From Escherichia phage rolling, in the sequence record NC_073056.1: DNA of 46,017 nt; one strand, given 5' to 3'. How positions within the stretch are numbered: position 1 is the first letter of the stretch; each line of letters starts with the position of its first letter. Shown here in pieces: positions 3,239 through 26,811 of this stretch. Both the position numbers and the translations under genes were made by a program. The notes below the pieces were generated by a model. It made no database searches. It saw only the letters and a program-made list of their open reading frames with translations, and had not been told where the DNA came from.

Positions 3239-3930
3239 TTTAAATTTCCCTCATTGACTGCTATTGCGAAGCCGCGCGGAGTGAGCGACCGTATTAATTT
3301 GGTGCGGGCAGATTTGCCACCGAGGCGACTATACTGCTTCGAGTACCCTTTTTCAACGAATACCGGCTTTTTCTCCGGCATACGAAAGCCGTTGCCGGTC
3401 CATAAACAGGTCAGCTTTGGATATGAATCGCGGTCGTTGATGTATTCTGGGAACAACGGGTGCGCGTCATCCTCCGGCAGATAGCCGCCATACTCCCACG
3501 GGTCAAACGAGTGGTCTGGCTTGCGCCACTGGGTGGACAGCACACTGCGCGGATTCTCAATCATATATGGCACTTCAAAGAAGTCACCCAGGTAAGCGGC
3601 AATCTTCGCGGTGCGCACGGCCTTAAGCTGAAAGGCGGGGTCTTTCGCACGCTTACGCGGGAACGCGGGCGCACCGCTCACCGCCAGATCCGTGCACGGT
3701 GGGAAAGCGTAGATGACGTCTGGCGTACCAAAATCGCCATTCATAGCGCGGTCTACGAAGTCCAGATCGATAAACTCATTGCGATAGCGGATGCCACGCC
3801 CATAGATACGGTAGTCGAGGTAAGACCCGTGATCGGCTTCGGAGTAGTTGAAACAGTAGCATTTATGCCCCATCTCGGCAGCACGCTCTACCATCAAGCC
3901 GCTGCCGTCAAATAATGACCAGATAATCAC
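3235..3930 (-). CDS. Compact DNA (cytosine-5)-methyltransferase-like protein (231 aa)
   Basis: Motif I-like SLFDGSG, motif IV-like FPPCTDLAVSG, motif VI-like MIENPRSV in canonical order; shorter than typical C5-MTases. Confidence 0.55.
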   Translation of the reverse strand: MIIWSLFDGSGLMVERAAEMGHKCYCFNYSEADHGSYLDYRIYGRGIRYRNEFIDLDFVDRAMNGDFGTPDVIYAFPPCTDLAVSGAPAFPRKRAKDPAFQLKAVRTAKIAAYLGDFFEVPYMIENPRSVLSTQWRKPDHSFDPWEYGGYLPEDDAHPLFPEYINDRDSYPKLTCLWTGNGFRMPEKKPVFVEKGYSKQYSRLGGKSARTKLIRSLTPRGFAIAVNEGNLK

Positions 3931-5351
3931 TTGCGCACCTTCTTAGCTTTCATGTATTCCATCAAATCGTCCTGAATATCGCGCTTACCGTCGCGGCGGT
4001 CTGCCACCAGTTCGTCCAGTGTCCCGCGTGCCTGGATAATGTAGACGAATACCGGTCGAGGGTGTCCGGCTTGCATCTGGCGTACCGGCCCGATACGCTC
4101 CACGATCTGCGCAAAGTGCTCATAGTTCCACGTATCCGAGAAGATAGCCAGGTGATGACCGCCGTCCTGCAAGTTGAGGCCGTGACCCGCCGATGCTGGG
4201 TGTGCGAACATGATGGGGATCTCGCCCCTGTTCCACGCTTCCACATCCTTATTGCCCTGCTTGCCTTTACCCATCGCAACGCCGTGGGGAAACTTCTTCT
4301 TCAGACGTGCCAGGTCGTGCTTGTACTGATACGCAACGAGCAACGGCGCGCCGTTCAACTCTTCTACGATACTTTCCAGCGCGTCCAGCTTGGCGTCGTG
4401 AATCTTCACCCACTCGTCGGTCCGTTCGCCGTCCTCGTCTACCTTATACACGGCACCGGAAGCAAGCTGGAGGCACTTGATGGTCTTCGCCGCAGCGTTC
4501 GCCGCTTCCACTGTTCCGCTTTCCAGTTCGGCAAATAGCTCGCTCTCAAACTGGTCGTAAATCTTGCGGGCTTTCTTCGGCAGGTCCACAACAACCGGCG
4601 TGTAGATGGGCTTGTCACATCCGAAGTATTCAGCCGCGTCCACGGTAAGGGATACATCGGACAGGCGTTGTTGGATCTCCTTCTCGGAGTTCTTGAGCGG
4701 GGCGTGCTGCATAGTGAAGCTGCCGGGTTTAACAGGCTTGCTAATAAACCAGCGATCGGTGAATGCTTTATAACTACTACCGAGGCGTTCTCCACCGTCG
4801 ACAAACCACGTCTGCCCCCATAAGTCCTTCAGTCCGTTTGGTGCAGGTGTGCCGGTAAGGTTAATCCAACGATTGACGTGCTTATGTGCGATCGCCGCCA
4901 GTGCGCGTGCGCGCTTACTACCCTGCTTACTTCGGTAGCCTTTCAGCTTAGTGGATTCATCGGCAACAACGACCGTAAAGGGCCACTCGTCGCCGTAATA
5001 CTCGACAAGCCACTCAACCACATCATAGTTAACGCAAACCACGTTAGCGTTGCTCTCAAGCGCTGCAATGCGGTCTTTCTCTGGTCCGGTGCCGTCTACT
5101 ACCAGCAGGGCTGGGAATCTCCATTTTTCTTGTTCCGGGGGCCACGTACCTGACGCAACGCGCAGCGGGGCTAGCACCAGTACGCGGTCTTCCTGGTTGG
5201 ATAGGATGCCAGTCTGGAACATTTTGTTGAGCGCCCACATAGTCGCGCCGGTTTTACCAGACCCCATTGTCGCCCAAATATTACAACGTTCGTGCTTGAG
5301 AATAAACGCGGTTATCAATTTCTGATATTCGCGACGTCGGAAGCGTGCCAT
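3927..5351 (-). CDS. Superfamily 2 (SNF2/DEAD-like) helicase
   Basis: Walker A TMGSGKTG, DExx box VVADEST; start at internal ATG M31 of track ORF 3927..5441. Confidence 0.8.
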   Translation of the reverse strand: MARFRRREYQKLITAFILKHERCNIWATMGSGKTGATMWALNKMFQTGILSNQEDRVLVLAPLRVASGTWPPEQEKWRFPALLVVDGTGPEKDRIAALESNANVVCVNYDVVEWLVEYYGDEWPFTVVVADESTKLKGYRSKQGSKRARALAAIAHKHVNRWINLTGTPAPNGLKDLWGQTWFVDGGERLGSSYKAFTDRWFISKPVKPGSFTMQHAPLKNSEKEIQQRLSDVSLTVDAAEYFGCDKPIYTPVVVDLPKKARKIYDQFESELFAELESGTVEAANAAAKTIKCLQLASGAVYKVDEDGERTDEWVKIHDAKLDALESIVEELNGAPLLVAYQYKHDLARLKKKFPHGVAMGKGKQGNKDVEAWNRGEIPIMFAHPASAGHGLNLQDGGHHLAIFSDTWNYEHFAQIVERIGPVRQMQAGHPRPVFVYIIQARGTLDELVADRRDGKRDIQDDLMEYMKAKKVRK

Positions 5352-5355
5352 ATCT

Positions 5356-5580
5356 TTATTCCGCCTTTTTCCAGACTTCGGTTTCACTGTTCCAATTCCT
5401 CTTTGTGGCGTCGTAGTTGGTGTCGTGTCCGATGTGCACACCGGTCGAGCGGAAGCTTTTAAACTTCTGCCAGCACACCGTCAACGGCAGCGGGTCATTC
5501 ATGCCTGCGATAAACCACACGCGATCACCTGGTTTGCACTCGCCCAGCTTGGTGAGTCGGTAATGTTCTTTCATCGTCAT
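5356..5580 (-). CDS. Hypothetical small protein (about 74 aa)
   Basis: C-terminal part of track ORF 5356..5787 from internal ATG (M70); upstream part overlaps a better Zn-ribbon ORF in another frame; weak RBS. Confidence 0.4.
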   Translation of the reverse strand: MTMKEHYRLTKLGECKPGDRVWFIAGMNDPLPLTVCWQKFKSFRSTGVHIGHDTNYDATKRNWNSETEVWKKAE

Positions 5581-5617
5581 GTATCCCAAAAATGGCGGGA
5601 CAAGCCCGCCGTATTGA

Positions 5618-5791
5618 TTATTCTTGTTCTGCGCGATAGCGGCGCTGCCTTTCACGCTCTTTCTTATTGCGGCACGATTTGCACTCGGCCCGATGACCGT
5701 CTGGACTGCGCGCAGTCTTGCCGGTGTATTTGTGGAACTGGGATAGCGGCTTGATGCATCCGCAATTACTGCAACGTTTTTCTTCAATCAT
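5618..5791 (-). CDS. Zinc-ribbon protein (57 aa; CSNCGC...CKSC)
   Basis: Four Cys in two CxxC pairs; internal ATG (M21) with GAGGA RBS; GCAACCAAT motif at 5848-5856 upstream. Confidence 0.5.
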   Translation of the reverse strand: MIEEKRCSNCGCIKPLSQFHKYTGKTARSPDGHRAECKSCRNKKERERQRRYRAEQE

Positions 5792-5831
5792 TTCTAAAAT
5801 CCTCGATAGTGCTAACCGGCACACTATACCG

Positions 5832-6110
5832 CTACGCGACCAATTCAGCAACCAATAAATTGCAGTCGGCTATGTTGTCTATAACGCGAACGTCAGCACC
5901 GCGGCGGGCCATCCGTTCATGTTCTCGCACCTGGTGCGGCTTCGGTTTTCCGCCGGGGCGCTTCACTTCGACGAATACTACTCTGCCGTTTATGATAATA
6001 ATCAGGTCGGGCGCACCTGCGCGCCCCTCCCATGCCAGTTTGCGGCAGAATCCGCCAACGGCTTTTACCAGCTTCATCAGGTGACTTTGTATCTTGCCTT
6101 CTGGAGTCAT
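5832..6110 (-). CDS. VRR-NUC domain nuclease
   Basis: PD-(D/E)xK-like GAPDLIIIINGRVVFVEVKRPGGKP signature; ATG start; ATGA overlap with next gene. Confidence 0.75.
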   Translation of the reverse strand: MTPEGKIQSHLMKLVKAVGGFCRKLAWEGRAGAPDLIIIINGRVVFVEVKRPGGKPKPHQVREHERMARRGADVRVIDNIADCNLLVAELVA

Positions 6111-6298
6111 TTGGTTTGCAACTCCACGTTACGCAGACGTAGATCTACCGGTATGTCAGATCGACCGGTTAGCGCCAGCGCCAGGTTTTCAGGCGTGACA
6201 AGTGCCGTAATGGTCTTGCCACGTTCCAGTCTAAGGACGATGCGAATCTCGGCATCGTCCGTCGCGCCAGCGCGCATTATGCTCATTTCTGCTTTCAT
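6107..6298 (-). CDS. Hypothetical small protein (63 aa)
   Basis: Track ORF 6107..6343 from internal ATG (M16) with AGGAAG RBS. Confidence 0.45.
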   Translation of the reverse strand: MKAEMSIMRAGATDDAEIRIVLRLERGKTITALVTPENLALALTGRSDIPVDLRLRNVELQTK

Positions 6299-6302
6299 AA
6301 TC

Positions 6303-8594
6303 TTACTTCCTGTACCGGTACATAATGTCGCCTTCGGCGGCAAGTGGGAAACCTTTCGCCCATATAGGCAGGTCGCACATCAGCGCGCAAAGCTCCTCGG
6401 TCGTGTAGTCGTCGGTGTCCGGCACTTCCGTGATCAATTCATCGTGCACTGACAGGACGATTTCATAGCCCGCAGCTTCAACACCAGGCATGGACCATGC
6501 GAGAATATCGCGGCACAACGCCTGTACGATGTTCTCCGTAAGTTTGCCGCCGTAGGTGTACTGGAATCCCCACTGGCGCGTCGTCTGATTCTCGCCCTGG
6601 TATTTGATGCGGGTACTGGTGCGCTTCTTGCCGGTGTCTTCGTCAATTTCAGTCGTGACAGACAGCGCGATGCCGGGGTAGCTCATGATGCGCCCCGACG
6701 GCAACTCAATTTTCAACCACCACCCCGCGGCGTTCGGGTCGTCGCGCTCCTCGTCGAAGGTTGGGTCGTGCTTCGCCTTCGTGCGCACAATCTTGAGCGC
6801 TTTCCTACCGTCCGGGCGAACGTTCGCGCCAGCCCAGTATGCTTTACCCGGATTGCGGATTGCACACAGCACCGCTTCCTCAAGCTCGGCCCAAAAGGCT
6901 ACGGTCTTCGGGTGCGACTCACGCCACATACGTTTGATCGCGTCGCAGGTCAACCACACGTTTTTAGGCAGTATGTAGGTTGGGCGCTCGTCTTTCTTGC
7001 CAGGCTTCGGCGGGCGCTTCGCTTCGTTGATGCGGGCAAACTCATAGCCACGCTTCGCCGCCGCCCAAATGTGATCGGGGAATGTTCCCTTCATTACGTC
7101 AGCCATCGCGTACAGGTCGAGGCCCAGGTTTTTAGCGAACTGCAAGAACGCAGCAACGCCGCCACCATATCCCAGTCCCAATTCACACGCCTTACCAATC
7201 TGGCGTAGGTCTTTGCGGTTGGCCTTGATGTAGTCCGGGTCGAGGCCGAACATCTTACCGGCAGTTTCACAATAGATATCGCGTCCGGCCTTAAACACCA
7301 TTAGCGCGGTTTTCTCGCCCGCGATCCAGGCAAGGCCGCGCCCTTCCACGTTGGAGTAGTCCGCTACGACAAACTTCTTGCCCTTAGCCGGGATAATGCA
7401 CCCGCGAACGGTCGAGGCGGTTAGCTTCGATATGTCATACGCCCAGTGTGCGGTACCGCGTAACAGGGAGTTGATGCCGTTGGTGAGCATATGAGATCGG
7501 ACCCAAAACGAAACGTCGCTCTCACCTTCTCGGCGCTTAATCTTCCCTTCGTGGTCATCACTGTACTCGCCACGTGCCAGGTTTTGAGGCTGAAAGCCTT
7601 TACCGGCCCAGCGTAGTGTGCGCTTTGCCCCACCGTACTGAAGACAACCACGGCGGCGACCATCGGCAGACAGGCCATTTACGAGCGGATTGTATTTAGT
7701 CGATGCCGTTGATGACGCACCGAGGCGCATCTCAATAAGCACTTTGCCCTCGTCGGGGAAGTCTGGATCTTCCAGCAAGTCATTCAGCGTGGATTTCTGC
7801 GCGTTGTGAATTGTGAACGCCGGGGCAATATCACGCAGGATTGGCAGGAAGTCATTGCCAGTCAGCTTACCGCCGAACAGTTCCCAGGCTTCTTCCTTCA
7901 ATTCCTCTTTATGCACCTGCACCGCCTTGATCGCGGCGTTAGCCAGGTCAACGTCCACATAGAAGCCACGGTCGTTAATCAACTGGTCAATAAGCAGGAT
8001 TTCGTCTTCCTTCGGCGTGTTACCCCAGTCCGGTATGCGCCAGTAGACTTCACGCATTGCGATAATATCCAGCGCGGCATAGCGCAGGAATTTAGCCCAT
8101 TCTTCCGGGTGTGTGTCGCGGGTGTAGCGGCGGATTTTGTAGGTCTTAGGGGTAGGCTTACAGAATCGTTTGATCAGCGCCTTGCCAGCCTTATCCTTCG
8201 CGTGCTCTGCGTCAACGCCCAGTACCCGGCATTGCATATCAAGACTACCCGGCAGCGCATGTCGGAAGGCCATAATCATGGTATCTTCGATCTGGCTTAC
8301 CGGCAGGTCAATACCCCACTTTTCACGGATAACCAGGCGGTCAAACAGGAGGCCGTTCGCCATCACTATTTTTGCTTTTTTGCGGGTTACCTGGCGGAGC
8401 GCCTTGCGTAGTTCACGCGGCATCGTGGGAGATTCAGTGGCGTCCCATGTCTGCACGCGGCCCTCGTCTATGGCGTAGGTGCAAATCATAATCTCGGTGG
8501 TGGGGTGTTCCGCGTAGGCATACGCACCTGCTTTCTTCAGGTCCACCCCGCTAAACGTCTCGGTGTCGAGAAATAGGCGTTCGAAGTCTTTCAT
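6303..8594 (-). CDS. DNA polymerase, family A, with 3'-5' exonuclease domain
   Basis: Exo I motif FLDTETFSG; Pol motif A DYSNVEGR, motif B KACELGLGYGG, motif C SVHDELITEV. Confidence 0.95.
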   Translation of the reverse strand: MKDFERLFLDTETFSGVDLKKAGAYAYAEHPTTEIMICTYAIDEGRVQTWDATESPTMPRELRKALRQVTRKKAKIVMANGLLFDRLVIREKWGIDLPVSQIEDTMIMAFRHALPGSLDMQCRVLGVDAEHAKDKAGKALIKRFCKPTPKTYKIRRYTRDTHPEEWAKFLRYAALDIIAMREVYWRIPDWGNTPKEDEILLIDQLINDRGFYVDVDLANAAIKAVQVHKEELKEEAWELFGGKLTGNDFLPILRDIAPAFTIHNAQKSTLNDLLEDPDFPDEGKVLIEMRLGASSTASTKYNPLVNGLSADGRRRGCLQYGGAKRTLRWAGKGFQPQNLARGEYSDDHEGKIKRREGESDVSFWVRSHMLTNGINSLLRGTAHWAYDISKLTASTVRGCIIPAKGKKFVVADYSNVEGRGLAWIAGEKTALMVFKAGRDIYCETAGKMFGLDPDYIKANRKDLRQIGKACELGLGYGGGVAAFLQFAKNLGLDLYAMADVMKGTFPDHIWAAAKRGYEFARINEAKRPPKPGKKDERPTYILPKNVWLTCDAIKRMWRESHPKTVAFWAELEEAVLCAIRNPGKAYWAGANVRPDGRKALKIVRTKAKHDPTFDEERDDPNAAGWWLKIELPSGRIMSYPGIALSVTTEIDEDTGKKRTSTRIKYQGENQTTRQWGFQYTYGGKLTENIVQALCRDILAWSMPGVEAAGYEIVLSVHDELITEVPDTDDYTTEELCALMCDLPIWAKGFPLAAEGDIMYRYRK

Positions 8595-8761
8595 TGCTTT
8601 ATCCTCACTACGGCGTCAGCGCTGCCGATCATGGAGAAGATTCCGTCGGAAAGGGCAATCTCTTCGCCGTTGTTGCGAATCTCGGCAACGGTAAAATACT
8701 CGCCCAGCAATTTGGACCACACACGCATTCCGACTTTTACTTCACTGGCTTTAATACGCAT
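8591..8761 (-). CDS. Hypothetical small protein (about 56 aa), translationally coupled to DNA polymerase
   Basis: Read by eye (below track cutoff): MRIKASEVKVGMRVW...; stop overlaps pol ATG in ATGA; AGGA RBS. Confidence 0.45.
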   Translation of the reverse strand: MRIKASEVKVGMRVWSKLLGEYFTVAEIRNNGEEIALSDGIFSMIGSADAVVRIKQ

Positions 8762-8773
8762 TTTTCATTGTCC

Positions 8774-8801
8774 TAATAAAAAGCCCGCATTAAGCGGGCT
8801 T
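8774..8801 (-). terminator. Intrinsic terminator/attenuator between SSB gene and polymerase
   Basis: Minus-strand hairpin AAGCCCGC/GCGGGCTT followed by U-rich tract. Confidence 0.5.
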
Positions 8802-8819
8802 GAATAGTGGGCTTTGCCC

Positions 8820-9599
8820 TTAACGGCGGCGACGTTTACGTGGTGCTTCGTCTTCGTCGTCTTCGTCCTCATCTTCGTCATCGCGGGACTTACGACGTTT
8901 ACGCGGCTTATCGTCTTCATCGTCGTCATCTTCATCACGGCGGCGCTTAGACTTGCGCGGTTTTTCATCTTCATCATCGTCGTCACGACGTTTTGACTTT
9001 TTGGATTTACGCGGTGCTTCGTCTTCGTCATCATCCAGGTCGTCGTCAGAGCAATATGCACCGCCGCCGCCACCGAAGGAATCCCCATCATCACGGAAGC
9101 GCATACCCAGCAGACCACAGCCTAAGCCTTTGCCGTTGGTATTGTTCCAGGCCCAAATATCTAAGGAAACGTTGCAATAGCAACCGGAATAGATTTCTTT
9201 CCCTTCGATTTCGTCGCCGTCGATGGTCAGACCCTGCTCCGTCTGCTTCTCGCCTTCGGAAGTCTGGATGATCGGCTGTTTGAATGATTTAGCGTTGATA
9301 TACAGCTTACCTTCAAACTCTTCCGTTACTTCTTCACGCTCATCACCATCTCGAACGGCACATTCTTTCGAATCCTGCGCGTAGTGGCGGTCCATCCACT
9401 TATCGGCGTTCTTCTCAGACTTCAGTTTTTCGGTGAGCACTGCGCGTGCCGCCGCTTCCACTTTGTCCACCTGCGGATCTTCTTTATCAAGAATAATCAC
9501 CGCACGATATGCCGGTTTTTGTCCATCCTGTTTAGGGGTATCACGCTCCCAAATTTTCAGGAAGCATACACGTACATTTTTCAGGTTGACTTTAGCCAT
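8820..9599 (-). CDS. SSB-like protein, DUF2815 family, with unusual alternating acidic/basic C-terminal tail
   Basis: N-terminus MAKVNLKNVRVCF...GQKPAYRAVIIL resembles DUF2815 phage SSB; start at internal ATG (M32) with GAGGA RBS; last ~76 aa are D/E blocks alternating with PRKxKxRR blocks. Confidence 0.7.
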   Translation of the reverse strand: MAKVNLKNVRVCFLKIWERDTPKQDGQKPAYRAVIILDKEDPQVDKVEAAARAVLTEKLKSEKNADKWMDRHYAQDSKECAVRDGDEREEVTEEFEGKLYINAKSFKQPIIQTSEGEKQTEQGLTIDGDEIEGKEIYSGCYCNVSLDIWAWNNTNGKGLGCGLLGMRFRDDGDSFGGGGGAYCSDDDLDDDEDEAPRKSKKSKRRDDDDEDEKPRKSKRRRDEDDDDEDDKPRKRRKSRDDEDEDEDDEDEAPRKRRRR

Positions 9600-9654
9600 T
9601 TTCCAATTCCTCATTTCACATGTATCGGGGTTATTAGAAGCCACCCCGTCCGGC

Positions 9655-9678
9655 TTGGTTGCTAATGTACTTGGTTGC
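9655..9678. promoter_or_regulatory. Pair of TTGGTTGC motifs in SSB upstream region
   Basis: TTGGTTGC at 9655-9662 and 9671-9678, between membrane protein gene and SSB gene. Confidence 0.4.
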
Positions 9679-9695
9679 GTTTCCGCGGTCAAGTG

Positions 9696-9929
9696 TTATT
9701 TATCAAAAAGTTTTAAAATCAGGTCGAGATATTTGTGCAGCCACACCAGTGGTGGGCGGTGCACGTTGTTTCCCATCCAGTTCAAACAGGCTTCGTTATA
9801 GCCGTCGTCCCATAAGCGGGATGGGTGGCGAATCATCCAGGCCAGCGCCAGCAGACCGCCGCAGGTATGTACTACGAATCCCAGCGCCGCAAGCGGCAGC
9901 ACCATAATCATTGCCAGAATCTTATTCAT
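9696..9929 (-). CDS. Small membrane protein (77 aa)
   Basis: Internal ATG (M43 of track ORF 9696..10055) 3 nt after upstream stop; hydrophobic ILAMIMVLPLAALGFVV... segment. Confidence 0.5.
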   Translation of the reverse strand: MNKILAMIMVLPLAALGFVVHTCGGLLALAWMIRHPSRLWDDGYNEACLNWMGNNVHRPPLVWLHKYLDLILKLFDK

Positions 9930-11352
9930 CGCCCAAATCCTCGTCGCTTGCTTCTTGCCATTCCGGGCGCGGGTCGTCAACTGGTGCCAGGACCGGTTTC
10001 GCCGGCGCACGCGTGATTTTATCTTGCAGTTTCGCCCACACTTTCGGTTTCTCATCCTTCAGCACCTTCTCGGCATCAGTAGGGCTGATTAATGATTCCT
10101 TGTACATCAGGTCGCGCTTGATCCGGGCCGTTGTGAATACAGCGATAACTTCGCTTTCATCCTTCCACTTACGCGCACCTTCACGACCAGCTACCAGCTT
10201 CAGGCCCAGCGCTTCGCCGTCACCGGCTAACACTGCTTTGAATACGGCAGTCTCGATCGCTTTGATGTGCTGGCGCATGGTTTCCAGGCCGTCGTAAGCC
10301 TTCTTCAGTTCTTCCGTGGTCATAGCACCGGCTGGCGCTTCTTTCTTGCCACGCTTCGCACGTCGGGCAGCTTTCCGGGCTTCGAGGTCCATGTTCTGGT
10401 CGTGGTTTTTGCATTCTTCCTCGGCGGCAATGCTTACATCGTCGCCCAGGTCTTCGTCGGTTGCCGTTGGTGGCGTCATTGTGTCGATGGCGGCTTTAGC
10501 GCGGGAACTACATTGGTCCGCAAATCGACACCACTGACACGCATCGGCGCTCGGACGGAAGTCTGCACGGGTGAGATTCTTCTTACCCTTAGCGAGGGCA
10601 TCCAGGGCGGCTACTGCGCGTTTTGCTGCGTACTTGGCGAAGATTTCCAGTGCTTCCACCGAAATATCCCACTCCGACGCCCCGCCGCAATACGGCTGGA
10701 ATATGACCAGGCGCACGGTTGTTATGTCGTACATCTTTTGCAGCTTGCGCAGCAGTCCGAGCGCATACAGCATAAGCTGTTTGTTCTCTTTCGCCTCGAC
10801 CTTATGGCGCCCGGTCTTCAGGTCGCCCACAATGAGCATGTACGTGCCGTCGGTCTTCTTCATTACCATAACCATATCGGCAGTACCGAAGGTCTTGATC
10901 GCTTCGCCGTCAATCTCGTAGCCTTTGTGCAGGACGCGAGTCAGATCCGCGCGCATCTCAAGCTGTACAAACTCGGCAACTTCAAGCAGCGGTCGCCAGT
11001 GGTCGATGTACGCGTCGCACTGTTTCACCATGTCGTCAGTTACCAGGATGGCGTCCTTAGGTGCTTTAGCTGCCGCTTTAACTGGTCCTTTACCCTGATT
11101 TTCGACGTAGCACCCTTTATATGTCTTCGCCGTGATGTGGTCTTCGCCTGCAATGATGCGGTTTAGTACCACTTCAGATACGGTGTGCATACTCGTACCG
11201 TTGATCGCGGCTTGCCCGGATTCGTTCGGAATACCTTTCTCCACCACCAGGGCGGCGGGACACCCCATCCATTTTTTAGCGCCGGATGGGCCGAGTAATG
11301 AGTGTTCTGTATTACTGCCGGATTGCGTCTTGCGCTTCGCTTTGATAGCCAT
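9922..11352 (-). CDS. PD-(D/E)xK nuclease, DUF2800/Cas4-like (phage exonuclease)
   Basis: N-terminal LLGPSGAKKWMGCP, GDLKTG, C-terminal Cys cluster CQWCRFADQC; conserved neighbour of DUF2815 and pol A. Confidence 0.75.
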   Translation of the reverse strand: MAIKAKRKTQSGSNTEHSLLGPSGAKKWMGCPAALVVEKGIPNESGQAAINGTSMHTVSEVVLNRIIAGEDHITAKTYKGCYVENQGKGPVKAAAKAPKDAILVTDDMVKQCDAYIDHWRPLLEVAEFVQLEMRADLTRVLHKGYEIDGEAIKTFGTADMVMVMKKTDGTYMLIVGDLKTGRHKVEAKENKQLMLYALGLLRKLQKMYDITTVRLVIFQPYCGGASEWDISVEALEIFAKYAAKRAVAALDALAKGKKNLTRADFRPSADACQWCRFADQCSSRAKAAIDTMTPPTATDEDLGDDVSIAAEEECKNHDQNMDLEARKAARRAKRGKKEAPAGAMTTEELKKAYDGLETMRQHIKAIETAVFKAVLAGDGEALGLKLVAGREGARKWKDESEVIAVFTTARIKRDLMYKESLISPTDAEKVLKDEKPKVWAKLQDKITRAPAKPVLAPVDDPRPEWQEASDEDLGDE

Positions 11353-11540
11353 TATTCGACCCTCGTAAATTGAGCAATATAATAATCATGCTTAATTCCT
11401 GCTTTCGCCGCGGCGTTATTCATTGTCGCTGCCAGTTCTTTCGCTTGCATCCAGCAACAATTCCAGTTCTGATTCATAATTATTTCCGGCTGTTCGTCGC
11501 CGGTGTTACGGCAGCGAAATAAAACAAAGAAAATACTCAT
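11352..11540 (-). CDS. Hypothetical small protein (62 aa)
   Basis: Internal ATG (M6 of track ORF 11352..11555); TAATG overlap with upstream gene. Confidence 0.4.
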   Translation of the reverse strand: MSIFFVLFRCRNTGDEQPEIIMNQNWNCCWMQAKELAATMNNAAAKAGIKHDYYIAQFTRVE

Positions 11541-11791
11541 TATGGCGTCTCCCAACGGTCAATAGTTTTTGCTTCAGATCCAACTGCAAAGCGAACATAT
11601 TCATGATTCGAGTCCGCCCATAAATAAAAGTCTGGATTAGCGAAGGTCGTGCGTTTAATTTGTGCCGGTGTTTCCCGCTTCTTACTAATTACGGCAACGC
11701 GCGATTGAAATGGGCCGGTGCGTTCGAATAGCCAATAATAAGGGCGCTGGTCGCGTGAATCCACCGCCTCGATTAGCGTGAAGCGTGCCAT
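11540..11791 (-). CDS. Hypothetical protein (83 aa)
   Basis: ORF track; GAGGA RBS. Confidence 0.6.
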   Translation of the reverse strand: MARFTLIEAVDSRDQRPYYWLFERTGPFQSRVAVISKKRETPAQIKRTTFANPDFYLWADSNHEYVRFAVGSEAKTIDRWETP

Positions 11792-11839
11792 TATCTCGTC
11801 CTCTAAAAATAGGCCCGCAGATTAGCGGGCCGGATAATA

Positions 11840-12358
11840 TTAATCTTCTAATTCGAAATACGTTTCTACGATTTCTTTTAAATCTTTGTGGAAGTCTTCG
11901 ACGTCGTCATCTTCCAGCTTGGCGACGGATTTAATTTCGAACGCTTCCAGCAGATCATCAAATTCGTCGTTTGCGTCGTCGTCATCTCCGCCCGCAATAA
12001 TAGCGGCATACTGTTTGATTTCGTCGCGCATTTCTTTAAGCGGATCGGCATCTTTCTTGCCTTTGCCTTTCGCCGGTGCTTTCTTAGATTTCGCCGGGGC
12101 TTCTTCCTCGTCCGCGTCGTCGTCTTCTTCTACGGCTTCTTTCTTAGCCTTGCCCTTTGCGGGCGCTTTTTTGGTCTTTGCCGGGGCTTCGTCTTCAGCA
12201 TCGTCATCTTCGGCTACTTCTTCTTTCGCCTTGCCCTTTGCCGGGGCTTTCTTCGCTTCCTGTTTACCAACGGCAGCGCCAGCAGTTTCATAATGCTTAG
12301 CGATGGTTTCCAGTGCTACAACGCCGCGAGTGATCAGGTTTACGATTTGCTCAAACAT
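11840..12358 (-). CDS. Charged low-complexity protein with three KKAPAKGKxKK / acidic repeats; first leftward early gene
   Basis: ORF track; ATG with GGAG RBS; repeats EEVAEDDDAEDEAPAKTKKAPAKGKAKK x3. Confidence 0.7.
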   Translation of the reverse strand: MFEQIVNLITRGVVALETIAKHYETAGAAVGKQEAKKAPAKGKAKEEVAEDDDAEDEAPAKTKKAPAKGKAKKEAVEEDDDADEEEAPAKSKKAPAKGKGKKDADPLKEMRDEIKQYAAIIAGGDDDDANDEFDDLLEAFEIKSVAKLEDDDVEDFHKDLKEIVETYFELED

Positions 12359-12419
12359 GGTATATCTCCGATTGGTTAATTTTAAGTGTTCGGTGCGGTA
12401 TGCCCCGTCAACGAGGTGA

Positions 12420-12449
12420 ATAATAGATTGGTTGCATGCGGGGTGTCAA
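12420..12449 (-). promoter_or_regulatory. Leftward early promoter (TTGACA-N18-TATTAT)
   Basis: Minus-strand -35 TTGACA (plus 12444-12449), -10 TATTAT (plus 12420-12425); ATTGGTTGCA motif (12427-12436) fills the spacer. Confidence 0.55.
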
Positions 12450-12460
12450 CAACTAATTTC

Positions 12461-12497
12461 AAAAAAAAAAAAGCGCCGAGGCAAAATGCGACGGCGC
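12461..12497 (-). terminator. Minus-strand intrinsic terminator in divergent control region
   Basis: GCGCCG/CGGCGC stem preceded on plus strand by A12, giving hairpin + U12 on minus-strand RNA. Confidence 0.55.
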
Positions 12498-12568
12498 TAA
12501 CCAATAAGAGACAATGAGACGTGATTATTATTACACGCGTGCGCGCCCGTTTCAATATTCAAAAGGAG

Positions 12569-12597
12569 TTGACACCCTGCAATTTTAGGTGTAGTTT
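12569..12597 (+). promoter_or_regulatory. Rightward promoter (TTGACA-N17-TAGTTT)
   Basis: Consensus -35 TTGACA 12569-12574, -10 TAGTTT 12592-12597, upstream of AGGAG RBS and ATG 12629. Confidence 0.55.
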
Positions 12598-12628
12598 CGT
12601 TGGTCATTAACCAATAGGAGACAGAACA

Positions 12629-12958
12629 ATGCATATCAACGACGCAATCGAAATGTTAACCAATGCTGTTAGCGGTGAGACAAGCCGGTCCTGGGCTTAT
12701 ACCGATGCCGTGGGTGAGGTGCTATTTGAAATCGAACGTCTGCGCAGTGTCGAAAAAGAATTGCGCGCCAAGCTGGAATTGCTAAACGGTACGGCAGCAA
12801 GCAAGTTGCAAAAGCACAACGAAGAAATGGAAGAATACAAAAAGCAGGTTATCCGTTTACGCGACGAGGGCAAGTCCTGGGCGATGATTGCCGAGTTGAC
12901 AGGAATTAATCAGAGCACCGTACGCTCATGGGTACGCAATAATAAAACTTCTAAATAA
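12629..12958 (+). CDS. HTH DNA-binding regulator (109 aa)
   Basis: C-terminal helix-turn-helix SWAMIAELTGINQSTVRSWVRN; ATG with AGGAG RBS. Confidence 0.75.
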   Translation: MHINDAIEMLTNAVSGETSRSWAYTDAVGEVLFEIERLRSVEKELRAKLELLNGTAASKLQKHNEEMEEYKKQVIRLRDEGKSWAMIAELTGINQSTVRSWVRNNKTSK

Positions 12959-12968
12959 GGCAACGGCA

Positions 12969-15230
12969 ATGAGAGATTATTTAATTGAGTTCGGCACCGT
13001 CGGCGGTAAATACGGCAAACGTGTTAAAAACCATTCTATGACTGAAGCCGAGTTTATGGAATACGTCGCTGATACCGTTGAATTATCCAGCGTAACCATT
13101 ACCGGCGACGAGACTAAGAAAGAATACGACGAGGTGAAAGGCAAGGCGGAAGGCATTGTCGCCACCACTAAAGGCCGGGGACGTCGTGCTACGGAAGTGG
13201 GTGTCCGTTCCGTACTGTTCTATGACCTGGACCGCACTGACAACCGTACCCTCGGTCGCGTTAAGCGTGCCTTTCGCAAATCCGGCTTATCCCACGTCTA
13301 CTACTCCACTACAGGCGACCGCCACCCGCTGAAGGGCGGCACACGTTGCGCCCGTTTCCTGGTGCTCACTGATAAACCGGTTGATGTTTCCGATTTAGGC
13401 CGTGCGCAGTTCGCACTATTGAAACACCTGGGGCTGGAAGACGTGCCGTTTGATGATTGCACAAAAAACGTTAACAACCTGCAATTCCTCCCCCATTCCG
13501 GATCTACCGTGTCGTGTCATCCTGGCACGCCAGCCCGTGTCCGTCGTCTGCTTCGCCTGGCTGACAAGCTGGGAGTGGAGAAAGAGGAAGTACGCCGCGA
13601 ACTGACCCAGGGCGACGATGGCGTGGCGGACGGGATTCTGGATTGGTGCTTCCAGGCTGGCTTTGAACCACTGTCATCCGGTCGCGGTTATGAAGTGCCG
13701 TGCCCGAACGAGCACCTGCATAGCGGCGGCGGGTCGACGGCTATCATGGTTAAGGATGGCGAGATCCGTTTCAAGTGTATGCACACCGGAAACGAGTGCT
13801 GTTCCGAACTGAACAGACACCAGCACCTGGCGCTACGTCTTATAGGGATCCCGGACCACCTGAACGTCGAACCGCACAACATGTCACGTAAGCAAATCGC
13901 CGCCATTCTCCCTGGACTGGACGACGAGGAAGTCGAATCGTGCTATGAACATATTGTTGATGCAGTTGGCGACGGCGAAGAATACGGCGTGTGCACCGAT
14001 GCGGATCTGGATAACGAGCCGGTCGCACTCTTCAGTAAGCACGACCCGATCATAGAAGGCCTGGTAAACTTCAAATCGACCTGGTACATGGCTGGCGAGT
14101 CGAACATCGGTAAATCGTTCTACGTGCTGGGGCAAATGGGCGCGGTTGCCGCGGGGATTCCGTTCGGTGGCGCGAAGGTAGTCCAGTCTCATTGCTTCTA
14201 TTTCGACGCGGAAGGTGGTGAAGCCTCCAACCAGCGTAAAGAAGCATTGCAGATTAAATACGAGCACGACCTGGACAAGCTGCACATTATCGATCTGCAA
14301 TCACGCGGCTGGGATATCACCAGCAAATCCGGCTTGCGTGAAGTTATCAGCTTCATCAACCGCACCGCTAACGGCGAGCCGGTTGGCCTGGTGGCGTTCG
14401 ACTCACTCAACCAGACTGTTGCGCTGCGGTCCGCCGATGCAAAACCGTTCGACGAGAATAACGCCAGCGATATGGGTGAAGTGGTCAAAGCGCTGAAGGC
14501 CATTGCGGAAAATACAGGCGGCAGTGCGGGCGTCATCCACCACCCAGCGAAGGGTGCAAACGGCAGCAGATCTCCCCGTGGGTCCGGCGCGCTTCATGGT
14601 GCTGTTGATTCTGCGTTCTTCCTGGAACAGCCGGATGACAACCAGCCAGGCCAACTCAACCTGTATCACGAAAAATCCCGTAACGGGATTAAGCAAGCGC
14701 CGCGTGGCTTCGTCCTGCTCAAATGCAAGGTGAAGGTGGATCTCCGTAAGTCCGAGGCGTTCGAAGCCCACCAGTCCACCAGCACCGGTCCGGACTTCGG
14801 CGATGTGGTTGCCGGTTGGGACGTCAAGCCAATTGCATCCACGCCACGCGACGAGACTCTCTACCTCGTACCGGTCGCCCTGGCACCGTTCGCTATCGAA
14901 CAGGCGAAGGCGGCTGGCAAGGCAGCAGTTAAGGAAGAGAACACCGCCGGTCCGCGCAACGAAAAAGAGAAAGTGCTTTATGCGGCGCTGGAAAAACTGA
15001 TGGAAGATAACCCGGACCATACCGGATTCAGTAAATCGGCAATTGTCCGCCAGGCAGGGCTGGCAAAAGGTGGCACTTCGACGAAGGCAATCGACGATAT
15101 GGTGGAGCGCGGAGTGATAGGTTTTTACACCGATCCGCACACCGGGGCCATCTATGGGTCGTCTAATTTGGTCATAAAAACGAATATACCCATCACGCTT
15201 TCGGCGACCGATGACGACCTGAAAGATTAA
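12969..15230 (+). CDS. Primase-helicase replication initiator (primase-polymerase N-domain, RecA-like ATPase, C-terminal winged-helix-like region)
   Basis: Walker A GESNIGKS, RecA-like AFDSLNQ / VIHHPAKG segments, C-terminal HTH-like tail. Confidence 0.85.
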   Translation: MRDYLIEFGTVGGKYGKRVKNHSMTEAEFMEYVADTVELSSVTITGDETKKEYDEVKGKAEGIVATTKGRGRRATEVGVRSVLFYDLDRTDNRTLGRVKRAFRKSGLSHVYYSTTGDRHPLKGGTRCARFLVLTDKPVDVSDLGRAQFALLKHLGLEDVPFDDCTKNVNNLQFLPHSGSTVSCHPGTPARVRRLLRLADKLGVEKEEVRRELTQGDDGVADGILDWCFQAGFEPLSSGRGYEVPCPNEHLHSGGGSTAIMVKDGEIRFKCMHTGNECCSELNRHQHLALRLIGIPDHLNVEPHNMSRKQIAAILPGLDDEEVESCYEHIVDAVGDGEEYGVCTDADLDNEPVALFSKHDPIIEGLVNFKSTWYMAGESNIGKSFYVLGQMGAVAAGIPFGGAKVVQSHCFYFDAEGGEASNQRKEALQIKYEHDLDKLHIIDLQSRGWDITSKSGLREVISFINRTANGEPVGLVAFDSLNQTVALRSADAKPFDENNASDMGEVVKALKAIAENTGGSAGVIHHPAKGANGSRSPRGSGALHGAVDSAFFLEQPDDNQPGQLNLYHEKSRNGIKQAPRGFVLLKCKVKVDLRKSEAFEAHQSTSTGPDFGDVVAGWDVKPIASTPRDETLYLVPVALAPFAIEQAKAAGKAAVKEENTAGPRNEKEKVLYAALEKLMEDNPDHTGFSKSAIVRQAGLAKGGTSTKAIDDMVERGVIGFYTDPHTGAIYGSSNLVIKTNIPITLSATDDDLKD

Positions 15231-23841: not shown

Positions 23842-24928
23842 TCAACATATGGCGGATCGTATGATTCGCCGTCACATCTTCACCCAGCGCCTGAGCAATG
23901 ATCAGGCGCTGCGGGTGTTGGCTATGTGGGAGAAGTTCCGACCCACGTTACTTGGCAAGCTGACCGAGTTACTTGATGGCAAAAAGTCCATGAATAACAA
24001 GGCACTGACCACACTGTTAACGCAAATAGACAAAACCGTCAAAACGGAACTGCGCACCGAGTTTAAGGCGCTGGCTGAAAGCCTTCAGGAGTTTGCCGAC
24101 ACCGAGGCTGATTATCTTGCCGATACATTAACGGCAGCGATCCAGCCTGCGGTAGCCGTACCGGCTGTTGAGGTTGTTGGCGTAGTGACTGGCGCGCAGA
24201 TTGCAGCCACGGCTATGAAAAACCCGTTCCAGGGAAACACCATGATGCAATGGCCTGATTCACTTTCTGAGTGGATCAGGACGCAGATCGGGAATCAGGT
24301 GCGCGCTGGATTCATCCAGGGCAAGCCGACTATGGAAATTATCGCGGACGTAAAGCGCGCTCTCGGCGGTCGTAGCGCGCAAGCTATCTCAAGTGTTGTT
24401 AAGTCCGCAGTAAACCACTATGCGGCGACCGCCCGCGAGTTATTGGTGAAAGCTAATGACGATATTCTCGAAGGTCGCCAATGGTTGGCTACATTGGATA
24501 CGCACACATCACCAATGTGCCAACTACGCGATCGCCTGTTTTATCCTGTTGACGTCACTCCCGACACCAAAGGAAAGCGCGGCGGGAAAGTGGTGGCTGG
24601 ATCACAATATGGCGCTGGTCCGGGCAAGCTACATTATTGCTGCCGTTCGACGGAGACGTGGAAAGTTAAAGGCATGGAAGATTGGCCCAGTGGTAAGCGT
24701 CCGGCACTGAAGGCTGACGCGGGTCGATTGCTGAGTGAGCAGGTCGACGCTCAGACTGATTTCTTCTCATGGGTGCAGCGCCAGCCGCGCCATATTCTGG
24801 AGGAATTATATGGGGTGCAGCGCGCAGACCAGATTATGCGCGGCGTGAAAGTGCCTAAGATGTTCACCGATACCGGCGAACTAATGACTATTGCACAGCT
24901 TAAAAACCGGGGGTTATGGCGTGATTAA
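23825..24928 (+). CDS. Head morphogenesis protein (Mu F / SPP1 gp7-like)
   Basis: Position after portal; conserved-looking HYAATARELL...WLATLDTHTSPMC segment. Confidence 0.75.
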   Translation: MARTINQHMADRMIRRHIFTQRLSNDQALRVLAMWEKFRPTLLGKLTELLDGKKSMNNKALTTLLTQIDKTVKTELRTEFKALAESLQEFADTEADYLADTLTAAIQPAVAVPAVEVVGVVTGAQIAATAMKNPFQGNTMMQWPDSLSEWIRTQIGNQVRAGFIQGKPTMEIIADVKRALGGRSAQAISSVVKSAVNHYAATARELLVKANDDILEGRQWLATLDTHTSPMCQLRDRLFYPVDVTPDTKGKRGGKVVAGSQYGAGPGKLHYCCRSTETWKVKGMEDWPSGKRPALKADAGRLLSEQVDAQTDFFSWVQRQPRHILEELYGVQRADQIMRGVKVPKMFTDTGELMTIAQLKNRGLWRD

Positions 24929-25229
24929 ATATGCGGCTATTGGACTGGTTATCGGTCTGGCGGTTGGATTCTGGCAGGGTGATTCCTACCGCACTGGCGT
25001 TGTGGCGAAAGCGGCGCAAGAAGCGCAAGCGAAAGCCCAACGGCAGCAAACTAAGGTTGTTGAGGGGTCGGTGAAAGCTGAGCAGGCCCGCGACGTGGAA
25101 TACCGGACTATCACGAAAGAGGTTGTAAAATATGTTACGCGTCCTAACCGTCCTGATTGTAGTTTTGATGCTGAGCGCGTGCGGATCAAGCAAAGCGCCA
25201 TCGACGCCGCTAACCGAGTCGGTCTATAG
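24921..25229 (+). CDS. i-spanin (Rz-like)
   Basis: N-terminal TM AAIGLVIGLAVGFW then Ala/Gln-rich coiled coil; start uncertain (in-frame GTG 24921 or track start 24891); contains overlapping o-spanin. Confidence 0.65.
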   Translation: MIKYAAIGLVIGLAVGFWQGDSYRTGVVAKAAQEAQAKAQRQQTKVVEGSVKAEQARDVEYRTITKEVVKYVTRPNRPDCSFDAERVRIKQSAIDAANRVGL

Positions 25230-25362
25230 ACCGCCTTGCACATTTGAGAATGCCTCGGCAGACCCAGACGAAGACTTGCTTGTTGATGTTAAAAATATGG
25301 AGTGCGGATCTAAGCTGCGGGCGCAAGTGCTGGAGTTGCAGAAAATAATTCTGGGGCCGTGA
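25132..25362 (+). CDS. o-spanin (Rz1-like lipoprotein), overlapping Rz in +1 frame
   Basis: Signal peptide with lipobox LSAC, Pro-rich mature part; ATG with AGAGG RBS. Confidence 0.75.
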   Translation: MLRVLTVLIVVLMLSACGSSKAPSTPLTESVYRPPCTFENASADPDEDLLVDVKNMECGSKLRAQVLELQKIILGP

Positions 25363-25379
25363 TGGCCCCCCTTTTGTTA
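25340..25379 (+). terminator. Terminator hairpin, left copy of a 40-bp direct repeat
   Basis: AGAAAATAATTCTGGGGCCGTGATGGCCCC + T-run; GGGGCC/GGCCCC stem, Rz1 stop codon in the loop. Confidence 0.7.
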
Positions 25380-25380
25380 A

Positions 25381-25893
25381 CTACAAACGCATCGGCATGA
25401 TAACTAAAAAGGAACCTCCTTTGAACAGCACGCGTGTTGCCTTGTCTACTCCCTGAAATTCCAGTTTTAAGCCCTCAAACTTATGGTCGAACAATTTAGC
25501 AATTTTGCAGGCGTCGGACAGGTATGCCCCTTTAAACCCGATAGCCTCCACTTTATTGCTGACGAAAGACGTAACTCTTCTCCAGTCTGGAAATCGTCCG
25601 TCTACAATCTCGATGGGTATGGTAGCTATTAATACGTCTTTACTATCGAAGAACGCGGCGGAGGTGCCGTCTATGTTGCAGTATTCGAATTTAGTAGGTA
25701 AGCGGCCTTTAATTGATACTATTTTACTTTCACCTTCTGGAACAACCGCGGACCCGCAGAACAAACGGTGACCGTCGGTAGCCACGATGAATCCTTTCTC
25801 GTCGAAAAATACACCATTTAGGAAGTATCGGACGTCATTAGTTGCGGCGCACATCGTAGCGGCTTTAATGTCGGCATAGTTAACTTTAATCAT
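25381..25893 (-). CDS. Truncated beta-sliding-clamp (DnaN) homologue (about 170 aa)
   Basis: DVRYFLNGVFF...VATDGHRLF, IVDGRFPDWRRV and C-terminal LVIMPMRL match DnaN domain II/III hallmarks as recalled from E. coli DnaN; start at internal ATG (M27) with GAGGA RBS. Confidence 0.75.
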   Translation of the reverse strand: MIKVNYADIKAATMCAATNDVRYFLNGVFFDEKGFIVATDGHRLFCGSAVVPEGESKIVSIKGRLPTKFEYCNIDGTSAAFFDSKDVLIATIPIEIVDGRFPDWRRVTSFVSNKVEAIGFKGAYLSDACKIAKLFDHKFEGLKLEFQGVDKATRVLFKGGSFLVIMPMRL

Positions 25894-25915
25894 TTTCATT
25901 TCCTCGTGGTTATGT

Positions 25916-25955
25916 AGAAAATAATTCTGGGGCCGTGATGGCCCCTTTTTTGTTA
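25916..25955 (+). terminator. Terminator hairpin, right copy of the 40-bp direct repeat
   Basis: 30/30 identical to 25340-25369 then T6; duplicates the last codons of Rz1 plus the hairpin. Confidence 0.7.
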
Positions 25956-26717
25956 GCGCGGAATACCGCAAATCTCGTTGAGTGTTTTCACGTCCAGCGC
26001 CACCGCCGTGGACTTCGTCTTGTTCTGATATGGAATGAACTGTTCAACTTCAGGCCACGCCTTGATCAGCTTCTTATCGGTATTGTGCATATCCAGCACG
26101 CCGGTAACAGTTAGCTTGAACGCGTCATACTTTGCGCGCAACTCGCGGCGGGCCTTGTCATTTCGGTCCAGGCGCTTGCAGAAATCATGATCGGCCGGGT
26201 AGTCTACGCGTCCGCGCGGGAGATATATCGGCAGCACTTTTCCGTCCTCATCCACTTCGCACACTGACGCGAGCATAATTTCCGCGTACCCCGGTACAAT
26301 ATCGCTAACGTCAGGCGCGAGCGTATTCATATATTTCTCTTCCCAGTATCCGCGATGCCGGCGGTAGCTGTATCCGTCACCGCTCATATACAGGGATCGG
26401 ATGTTACCGCCTGCGTTGATTTCGAAATTGTCGCAGTAAACGCACCCAATACCCTTCTGACGGTCTTTGTTATAGCTATACGTCGCCTTGTCGGTGTAAA
26501 CGCTGACGCCATACATCTGCGACTGGTTATTGCGGATTTCTTCGATATATGCGCGTAGCTCGGCGAACGTGCGAATGCCTTTTGGCATACAGTCCAGCGT
26601 AATTGCGTACGCCAGGTCGCGAGAGTCCATCATGATTGATTTGGCTTCAGTCGCGATTTCGTGGTCGCGCAGGATGTTAGCCAGAATCTGGTTTTTAATG
26701 TCTTTTGTCAGTCGCAT
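25953..26717 (-). CDS. Hypothetical protein (254 aa), moron gene antisense to the late operon
   Basis: Track ORF 25953..26762 from internal ATG (M16) with GAGGA RBS; no family recognised. Confidence 0.65.
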   Translation of the reverse strand: MRLTKDIKNQILANILRDHEIATEAKSIMMDSRDLAYAITLDCMPKGIRTFAELRAYIEEIRNNQSQMYGVSVYTDKATYSYNKDRQKGIGCVYCDNFEINAGGNIRSLYMSGDGYSYRRHRGYWEEKYMNTLAPDVSDIVPGYAEIMLASVCEVDEDGKVLPIYLPRGRVDYPADHDFCKRLDRNDKARRELRAKYDAFKLTVTGVLDMHNTDKKLIKAWPEVEQFIPYQNKTKSTAVALDVKTLNEICGIPR

Positions 26718-26739: not shown

Positions 26740-26811
26740 TGCAACCAATATAGTGCAACCAATACCTGTATTGCAAGCGAATTTTGCGATTATTTTTATC
26801 GCTGATAATAT
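26740..26811. promoter_or_regulatory. Back-to-back divergent promoters (leftward for moron genes, rightward for scaffold/capsid)
   Basis: Leftward: TTGCAA (26771-26776) N18 TATATT (plus 26747-26752), with TGCAACCAAT at 26740-26749 and 26754-26763; rightward: TTGCGA (26784-26789) N16 TAATAT (26806-26811). Confidence 0.5.

Follow-up and report, generated by a model that had tools for sequence, protein, structure and literature searches.

The minus strand of Escherichia phage rolling, an E. coli siphophage of the genus Dhillonvirus, encodes a genuine homologue of the bacterial beta sliding clamp. The protein, herein called the mini-clamp, is less than half as long as the clamp. As judged from alignment and profile scoring, it is built of clamp domain II and the C-terminal half of domain III, and it keeps nearly all residues of the pocket by which the clamp binds its partners. 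The phage family to which it belongs is large, and the truncated architecture of this family appears to have gone unrecognised so far, although the gene itself is known to databases. All positions below refer to the window, which is the whole stretch of 46,017 nucleotides that was analysed (NC_073056.1).

The locus and its two-gene unit

The gene is located between spanin genes on one side (24891-25362, plus strand) and scaffold and capsid genes on the other (from 26867, plus strand). The features of this region are as follows.

24891-25229, plus strand: i-spanin gene, overlapping the o-spanin gene in a different frame
25132-25362, plus strand: o-spanin gene, overlapping the i-spanin gene in a different frame
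25381-25893, minus strand: mini beta-clamp coding sequence, 170 amino acids plus stop codon, 18.9 kDa, pI 8.6
25900-25905, minus strand: Shine-Dalgarno-like GAGGAA, 6 nt 5' of the ATG at 25893, read from the sequence
25956-26717, minus strand: nmad5, encoding Nmad5 (254 amino acids; Pfam PF18757, E 7e-56)
26747-26776, minus strand: sigma-70-like promoter, TTGCAA-18-TATATT, 5' of nmad5, 9/12 match in the promoter scan

The region around the mini-clamp gene is about 95% identical to that of phage vB_EcoS_WF5505. An initial sequence-only reading had described a minus-strand open reading frame of about 170 amino acids with its own ribosome-binding site, lying antisense in the late region. Both points were confirmed: the frame is real, with GAGGAA placed 6 nt from the ATG, and it runs on the minus strand between the plus-strand spanin and scaffold/capsid genes. 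The protein starts with MIKVNYAD and ends with LVIMPMRL. The same arrangement of the ribosome-binding site is present in Shigella phage EP23. Another ATG, two codons before the one at 25893, touches the Shine-Dalgarno sequence and is unlikely to serve as the start. Comparison with the PADLOC defence models gave no match. The spanin genes sit within the head-gene block and directly abut the mini-clamp cassette, and this position of the lysis genes is conserved across the genus.

A leftward unit of two genes is formed by nmad5, upstream, and the mini-clamp gene, and the two are probably co-transcribed. The leftward transcript probably starts from the sigma-70-like site at 26747-26776; this site is a consensus match only, and the scanned region gave two such sites where 2.5 are expected by chance. 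A direct repeat, ATTGGTTGCAC, is found twice at 26747-26800 on the minus strand, overlaps the -35 and -10 hexamers, and is conserved in EP23 (locus about 4860-4900). It may be an operator.

The nmad5 gene of Dhillonvirus has been linked to the Tmn defence system. A single Lys-to-Glu change near the C-terminus of its product leads to escape from Tmn, deletion of the gene does not, and nmad5 is toxic to clone (PMC11846954). The mini-clamp gene was considered as the anti-Tmn gene of Dhillonvirus and ruled out; the anti-Tmn gene is ORF35, which encodes a helical rod protein (PMC11846954). Nmad5 was likewise rejected as an obligate partner of the mini-clamp, because the two proteins have largely different phage distributions; the neighbours of the mini-clamp gene also vary between genera.

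Homology to the bacterial beta sliding clamp

The PDB was searched with phmmer, and 34 of the 35 matches were beta-clamp entries, the best with an E-value of about 1e-8. The matches to the curated models NCBIfam TIGR00663 (28.5 bits, cut-off 137.65) and Pfam PF02767, DNA_pol3_beta_2 (24.9 bits, cut-off 27), were below threshold, and such scores are expected because the protein is partial. The Pfam models of clamp domain I and domain III found no match in the protein. An AlphaFold2 model, made with 16 sequences, reached a pLDDT of 87 and a pTM of 0.85. The top 50 Foldseek matches of this model in the PDB were all beta clamps (E 6e-8), and the predicted structure has the DNA-clamp fold of beta-alpha-beta-beta-beta repeats.

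The claim that the protein is a DnaN homologue had been made from the sequence, with structure prediction as one of its checks. It is borne out by the phmmer search, by the AlphaFold2 model with the Foldseek comparison, and by the residue mapping described below.

Domain II joined to half of domain III

Residues were numbered by the E. coli DnaN sequence, which is identical to PDB 1MMI over 366/366 residues. The three-domain chain of about 366 amino acids is not matched by the mini-clamp, which has 170 amino acids only. In the alignment with E. coli beta, residues 1 to about 125, which are domain I, and residues 252-310 have no counterpart. The pairwise phmmer alignment had put the third motif of the mini-clamp on the first half of domain III. 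This placement was rejected as an artefact, because the clamp has an internal repeat; scoring with the family profile gave the C-terminal half as the true match. When segments were scored with the family HMM, the C-terminal half IIIb (E. coli 305-366) received 20.5 bits and the first half IIIa received 2.8 bits. Similarly, an artificial E. coli construct of II+IIIb scored 110 bits over the entire family profile, compared with 86 bits for II+IIIa. By these scores, the mini-clamp amounts to 1.5 clamp domains, namely domain II and, from domain III, the C-terminal beta-alpha-beta-beta-beta half. The early description of the protein as truncated, shorter than half a clamp and lacking domain I and most of domain III, is supported as to the truncation, with IIIb as the part of domain III kept and 252-310 as the segment lost.

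The segment 252-310 carries the ring-interface residues of domain III at about 272-304, a range taken from PMC11139829 and general knowledge, including I272 and L273. Mutation of I272 and L273 makes beta monomeric, as reviewed in PMC11139829. Both sides of the head-to-tail dimer interface, domain I and residues 272-304 of domain III, fall in segments that are absent from the mini-clamp. Because domain I and the interface-bearing half of domain III are both missing, the mini-clamp probably forms no canonical ring. Two further properties were found. The helix of the second motif, which lines the channel in clamps, is predicted to be lost in the subfamily of this mini-clamp, with residues 62-70 as coil. 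The calculated pI is 8.64, compared with 5.25 for E. coli beta.

The partner-binding pocket is conserved

The pocket retained by the mini-clamp corresponds to the hydrophobic site at which the clamp receives clamp-binding motifs, which are peptides of the QLxLF type. The review PMC11139829 lists 18 distinct residues in this pocket. Subsite I consists of R152, L155, T172, G174, H175, R176, L177, P242, R246, V247, V360, and M362, and subsite II consists of H175, N320, Y323, V344, M362, P363, M364, and R365 (PMC11139829). The mini-clamp is identical to E. coli beta at 16 of the 18 pocket residues, while elsewhere 36 of 138 aligned positions (26%) are identical (Fisher p = 3e-7). The two differences are N320 to K and V344 to D. 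The sequence-only reading had proposed that the partner-binding cleft was kept, and at the level of sequence these identities agree with it.

The same pattern is present across the family. The mean conservation is 0.84 for pocket columns and 0.49 for the other columns. The family-invariant columns are R22, L25, T39, G41, H42, R43, P102, Y124, and M166. Judged by this alignment, the invariant and near-invariant columns are essentially the pocket.

Oligomer and peptide models

A linked construct was modelled with AlphaFold2, in which four mini-clamp units were joined by 30-residue Gly-Ser linkers and followed by a terminal SQLDLF peptide, with 16 homologues in the alignment. This is a weak test, because it combines a 17-row alignment, a monomer network, and a linker workaround. 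With this set-up the pTM was 0.32, no confident contacts between units were seen, the units themselves were unchanged, and the peptide remained undocked with a pLDDT of about 33. The model mildly argues against a ring and lends no support to peptide binding.

The phage proteome was also scanned for clamp-binding motifs. No protein, including the polymerase and the replication proteins, contained a motif of the strict QL[SD]LF type. Loose matches occurred in a few phage proteins (Dam, the DUF2800 nuclease, and the primase-helicase), none of them terminal, and they are not informative.

A large phage family

The mini-clamp matches PHROG 3007 from end to end (E 6.8e-53), with residues 1-170 on profile positions 2-186 of 190. 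An exhaustive profile search of 1.84 billion cluster representatives, clustered at 50% identity, gave 185 clusters at E<=1e-30. The best 150 of these 185 clusters all match the entire profile as a single stretch; 146 of the 150 are 169-255 amino acids long, and the four exceptions have 271-312. As judged from these profile matches, the II+IIIb architecture is common to at least 185 clusters. Homologues were found by tblastn in 265 phage records (Salmonella 98, Escherichia 59, Klebsiella 26, and others), and many phage models of 160-250 amino acids in BFVD match the mini-clamp at a TM-score of 0.75-0.86. Examples include Shigella phage EP23 gp08, Sodalis phage SO1 gp7, Salmonella phage Skate gp41, and Escherichia phage fBC-Eco01 gp04. 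On these sequence comparisons, the mini-clamp is a member of a large conserved phage family and not a one-off fragment. The mini-clamp gene is under purifying selection, with a dN/dS of 0.21-0.24 between Dhillonvirus copies, a value similar to that of nmad5 (0.15-0.18).

The relatives in PHROG 3007 share the 1.5-domain architecture and also occur as lone antisense genes among structural genes. The subfamily of this mini-clamp differs from most members in lacking their C-terminal tail, which generally has 10-50 amino acids, and there is otherwise no substantive difference. A tail of at least 10 residues, and up to about 117, extends past the MPMR motif in 142 of 178 family members. Of these tails, 75 (53%) end in Ala-Ala-COOH, where about 4% is expected from tail composition; by analogy, such an end resembles an ssrA-like ClpXP degron. 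The tail-less subfamily ends in MPMRL, like E. coli DnaN.

The gene already carries the GenBank label "DNA polymerase III beta subunit" in WF5505, 101114BS4, CHD5UKE2, TheodorHerzl, and EP23. Other labels in the family are "beta clamp domain-containing protein" and "RusA-like Holliday junction resolvase". The RusA label, given to PHROG 3007 and EP23 gp08, was rejected: Pfam RusA does not match at E<=1, and the strong structural matches are all clamps. The name has spread across many RefSeq annotations of the family, such as NC_016566 EP23p08, and is probably an annotation error copied between records. A literature search for a characterised truncated phage clamp found genome papers only. These papers give the family the textbook sliding-clamp role by analogy, without remark on the truncation.

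An optional cassette in Dhillonvirus

Among the approximately 150 Dhillonvirus records that match the region, only 14 carry the mini-clamp gene at more than 80% identity. The gene lies in a cassette of 576 bp, which is bracketed by two 43-nt direct repeats.

25337-25379: left 43-nt direct repeat, containing the last o-spanin codons and a GC-rich hairpin at 25353-25369
25913-25955: right 43-nt direct repeat, 93% identical to the left copy, with its hairpin at 25929-25945

In the terminator scan, the repeat hairpins are terminator-like in both orientations. The repeat carries the end codons of the o-spanin gene, and a 3' fragment of the spanin gene has thus been duplicated. Phage Oekolampad has a single copy of the repeat and lacks about 25380-25906, so that 25379 is joined directly to about 25907. 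In EP23 the two genes stand in the opposite order, with the mini-clamp gene adjoining the promoter, and the nmad5 leader sequence is used again at the junction (EP23 locus 4841-4853). The repeats suggest that recombination at regulatory sequences in common relocated the mini-clamp gene. The GC content of the cassette is 45.2%, compared with 52-56% in the flanking genes and 54.2% in the entire window, as would fit acquisition from a donor with a lower GC content. The nearest homologues beyond Dhillonvirus are only 42-47% identical. Identities of the family-A polymerase gene are 92-95%, and the values for phages with and without the cassette are interleaved. The presence of the cassette does not track the phage polymerase gene.

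Genomic context in other phages

In Salmonella prophages, a homologue with 47% identity directly follows the gene of a CI-like repressor and heads a replication/recombination operon. This operon further encodes an HNH protein, a DUF2800/PDDEXK nuclease, an Enc34-type SSB, an Nmad5 or SIR2_2 protein, and DNA polymerase A. The same replication module is encoded at 3927-15230 in the phage analysed here. The slot between the Enc34-type SSB and DNA polymerase A genes is occupied by a gene for either an Nmad5 or a SIR2_2-domain protein in otherwise identical Salmonella prophages (10181-11662 in L004, 10120-10758 in L005). This slot is an accessory hot spot within the replication operon.

In a Kagunavirus, a Skatevirus, and a metagenomic phage, the mini-clamp gene is a lone antisense gene or part of a short antisense block inside the structural genes. 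Bidirectional terminators adjoin it in both annotated records, those of the Kagunavirus and the Skatevirus, and its neighbour in the Skatevirus encodes a ParB-like HTH protein. In podophage-like contigs, the gene is located among early genes. No neighbour is conserved across the genera examined.

Candidate functions of the mini-clamp

The best explanation, put forward tentatively, is that the mini-clamp is a non-ring pocket module that binds proteins with clamp-binding motifs and sequesters or redirects them, as a decoy or an adaptor. This module would stand alone, and its early expression would be driven by a host-type promoter. Its clients might be the clamp-loader subunit delta, Pol III alpha, Hda, translesion polymerases, MutS/MutL, or some other protein of the phage or of a defence system. 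Their sequestration or redirection would give the phage a conditional advantage, by host takeover or by counter-defence.

The selective conservation of the pocket fits this explanation. A monomeric beta, which does not support processive synthesis, has an affinity for delta about 50 times that of the ring (PMC11139829), and this behaviour fits as well. Several observations point the other way. The SQLDLF peptide was undocked in the linked model, though the set-up was weak, and two pocket positions are changed. The pocket residues are the most conserved ones in clamps generally, and their conservation may be partly structural. Some phages of the family, such as L010, seem to depend on host Pol III, and the sequestration of its partners might harm such a phage. 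The place of the Salmonella prophage gene at the head of a replication/recombination operon also fits a role in replication, and the basic pI hints at direct DNA binding.

A stronger form of the explanation is possible, though doubtful. In this form the mini-clamp would be a pocket-only clamp mimic and a new class of effector, which titrates clamp-motif proteins and thereby shuts down or redirects host replication and repair, or blunts a defence that acts through the clamp hub. Delta would be the most plausible target, because of its tighter binding to monomeric beta. In a bolder variant, four subunits of three motifs each would form a two-faced ring of 12 motifs with pockets on both faces.

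An accessory role in the phage replisome is less likely, but should be taken seriously. The mini-clamp would then hold the family-A polymerase, the primase-helicase, or recombination proteins on DNA, as a processivity or recruitment factor of a non-canonical kind. Its active form might be a homo-oligomer, such as a 12-motif ring of four subunits with three motifs each, or an open C-shape like herpesvirus UL44. The operon position in Salmonella prophages, which counts against a decoy, also suits a role in replication. However, the optional presence of the gene in Dhillonvirus weakens this role, and so does its lack of co-variation with the polymerase gene, which stays 92-95% identical with or without it. 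Under the strict pattern, no QLxLF-type motif is present in the phage polymerase or replication proteins. The linked tetramer gave no confident contact between units, although in a weak set-up, and the second motif is predicted to have lost the helix that lines the channel. The gene is also remote from the replication genes in several genera, where it runs antisense among structural genes.

It is improbable that the clamp fold has been reused apart from clamp partners, as a DNA-binding or regulatory protein or as a partner of Nmad5, with the pocket conserved for structural reasons. The basic pI agrees with such a reuse, and so do the ParB-like HTH neighbour in Skatevirus and the position of the gene, which adjoins nmad5 in both Dhillonvirus arrangements and shares an operon with it in Salmonella prophages. 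However, Nmad5 and the mini-clamp occur in largely different sets of phages, no neighbour is conserved across genera, and identity at 16 of 18 pocket residues is hard to account for by folding needs alone.

The chance is slim that the protein poisons the host clamp, either by co-assembling with host beta monomers or by capping them through an exposed beta-sheet edge, so that ring closure or loading is blocked. This proposal is weakened because the interface residues of domain III (E. coli 272-304) are missing, and domain I, the opposite side of the interface, is absent too. A decaying fragment or a mis-called, functionless frame can practically be dismissed: the short length, the scores under the Pfam and TIGRFAM cut-offs, and the terminator-like hairpin between the gene and its predicted promoter might suggest one, but the low dN/dS, the intact frame and ribosome-binding site conserved in all copies, the same architecture in at least 185 clusters and homologues in 265 phage records, and the confident structural model all speak against it. 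Of the three roles raised by the initial sequence-only reading, the decoy is favoured over both the polymerase accessory and the clamp poison.

Comparison with known clamp systems

The mini-clamp differs from DnaN itself (E. coli P0A988; PDB 1MMI/2POL) in having 170 instead of 366 amino acids and no canonical dimer interface, and in being phage-borne and optional. A natural parallel is E. coli beta*, which Skaliter, Paz-Elizur and Livneh are said to have described in 1996. It is reportedly a UV-induced product of internal translation in dnaN, consisting of domains II-III, and is reported to form an oligomer, a trimer that would have six domains, and to serve as a clamp for processive synthesis. 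Both are naturally made clamps without the N-terminus that begin near the start of domain II. However, beta* retains all of domain III, whereas the mini-clamp lacks half of it.

The monomeric I272A/L273A beta (PMC11139829) cannot close a ring and keeps the pocket. Its tight binding of delta and its failure to support processive synthesis are what would be expected of a pocket-only decoy. This mutant is an engineered protein of three domains, whereas the mini-clamp is a natural protein of 1.5 domains. The herpesvirus proteins UL42, UL44, BMRF1, and PF-8 have two domains, belong to eukaryotic viruses, and bind their own polymerase and DNA directly; their sequence relationship to the mini-clamp is remote.

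Other phages are known to act on the same machinery. Twort gp168 and G1 ORF240 bind the beta clamp (PDB 7evp), and N4 gp8 binds the clamp-loader subunit delta. These small early phage proteins stop host replication through the clamp and loader hub, and may be functional analogues of the mini-clamp only. They share neither sequence nor fold with it, and their targets are the clamp or its loader, whereas the mini-clamp would imitate the clamp.

Implications

The beta clamp is a central hub of bacterial replication and repair and a target of antibiotics. If the decoy or adaptor explanation is true, a natural, compact, and probably monomeric protein that consists of little beyond the pocket would be a new route by which phages manipulate this hub. 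The mini-clamp would also be a ready-made 19-kDa scaffold for the study and screening of pocket ligands. The routine annotation of the family as a processivity-boosting "sliding clamp" is probably wrong as written. Natural Dhillonvirus pairs that differ in the presence of the cassette allow a direct test of the function. Hundreds of sequenced phages that infect Salmonella, E. coli, Klebsiella, and other hosts carry a member of the family, and phage-therapy candidates are among them.
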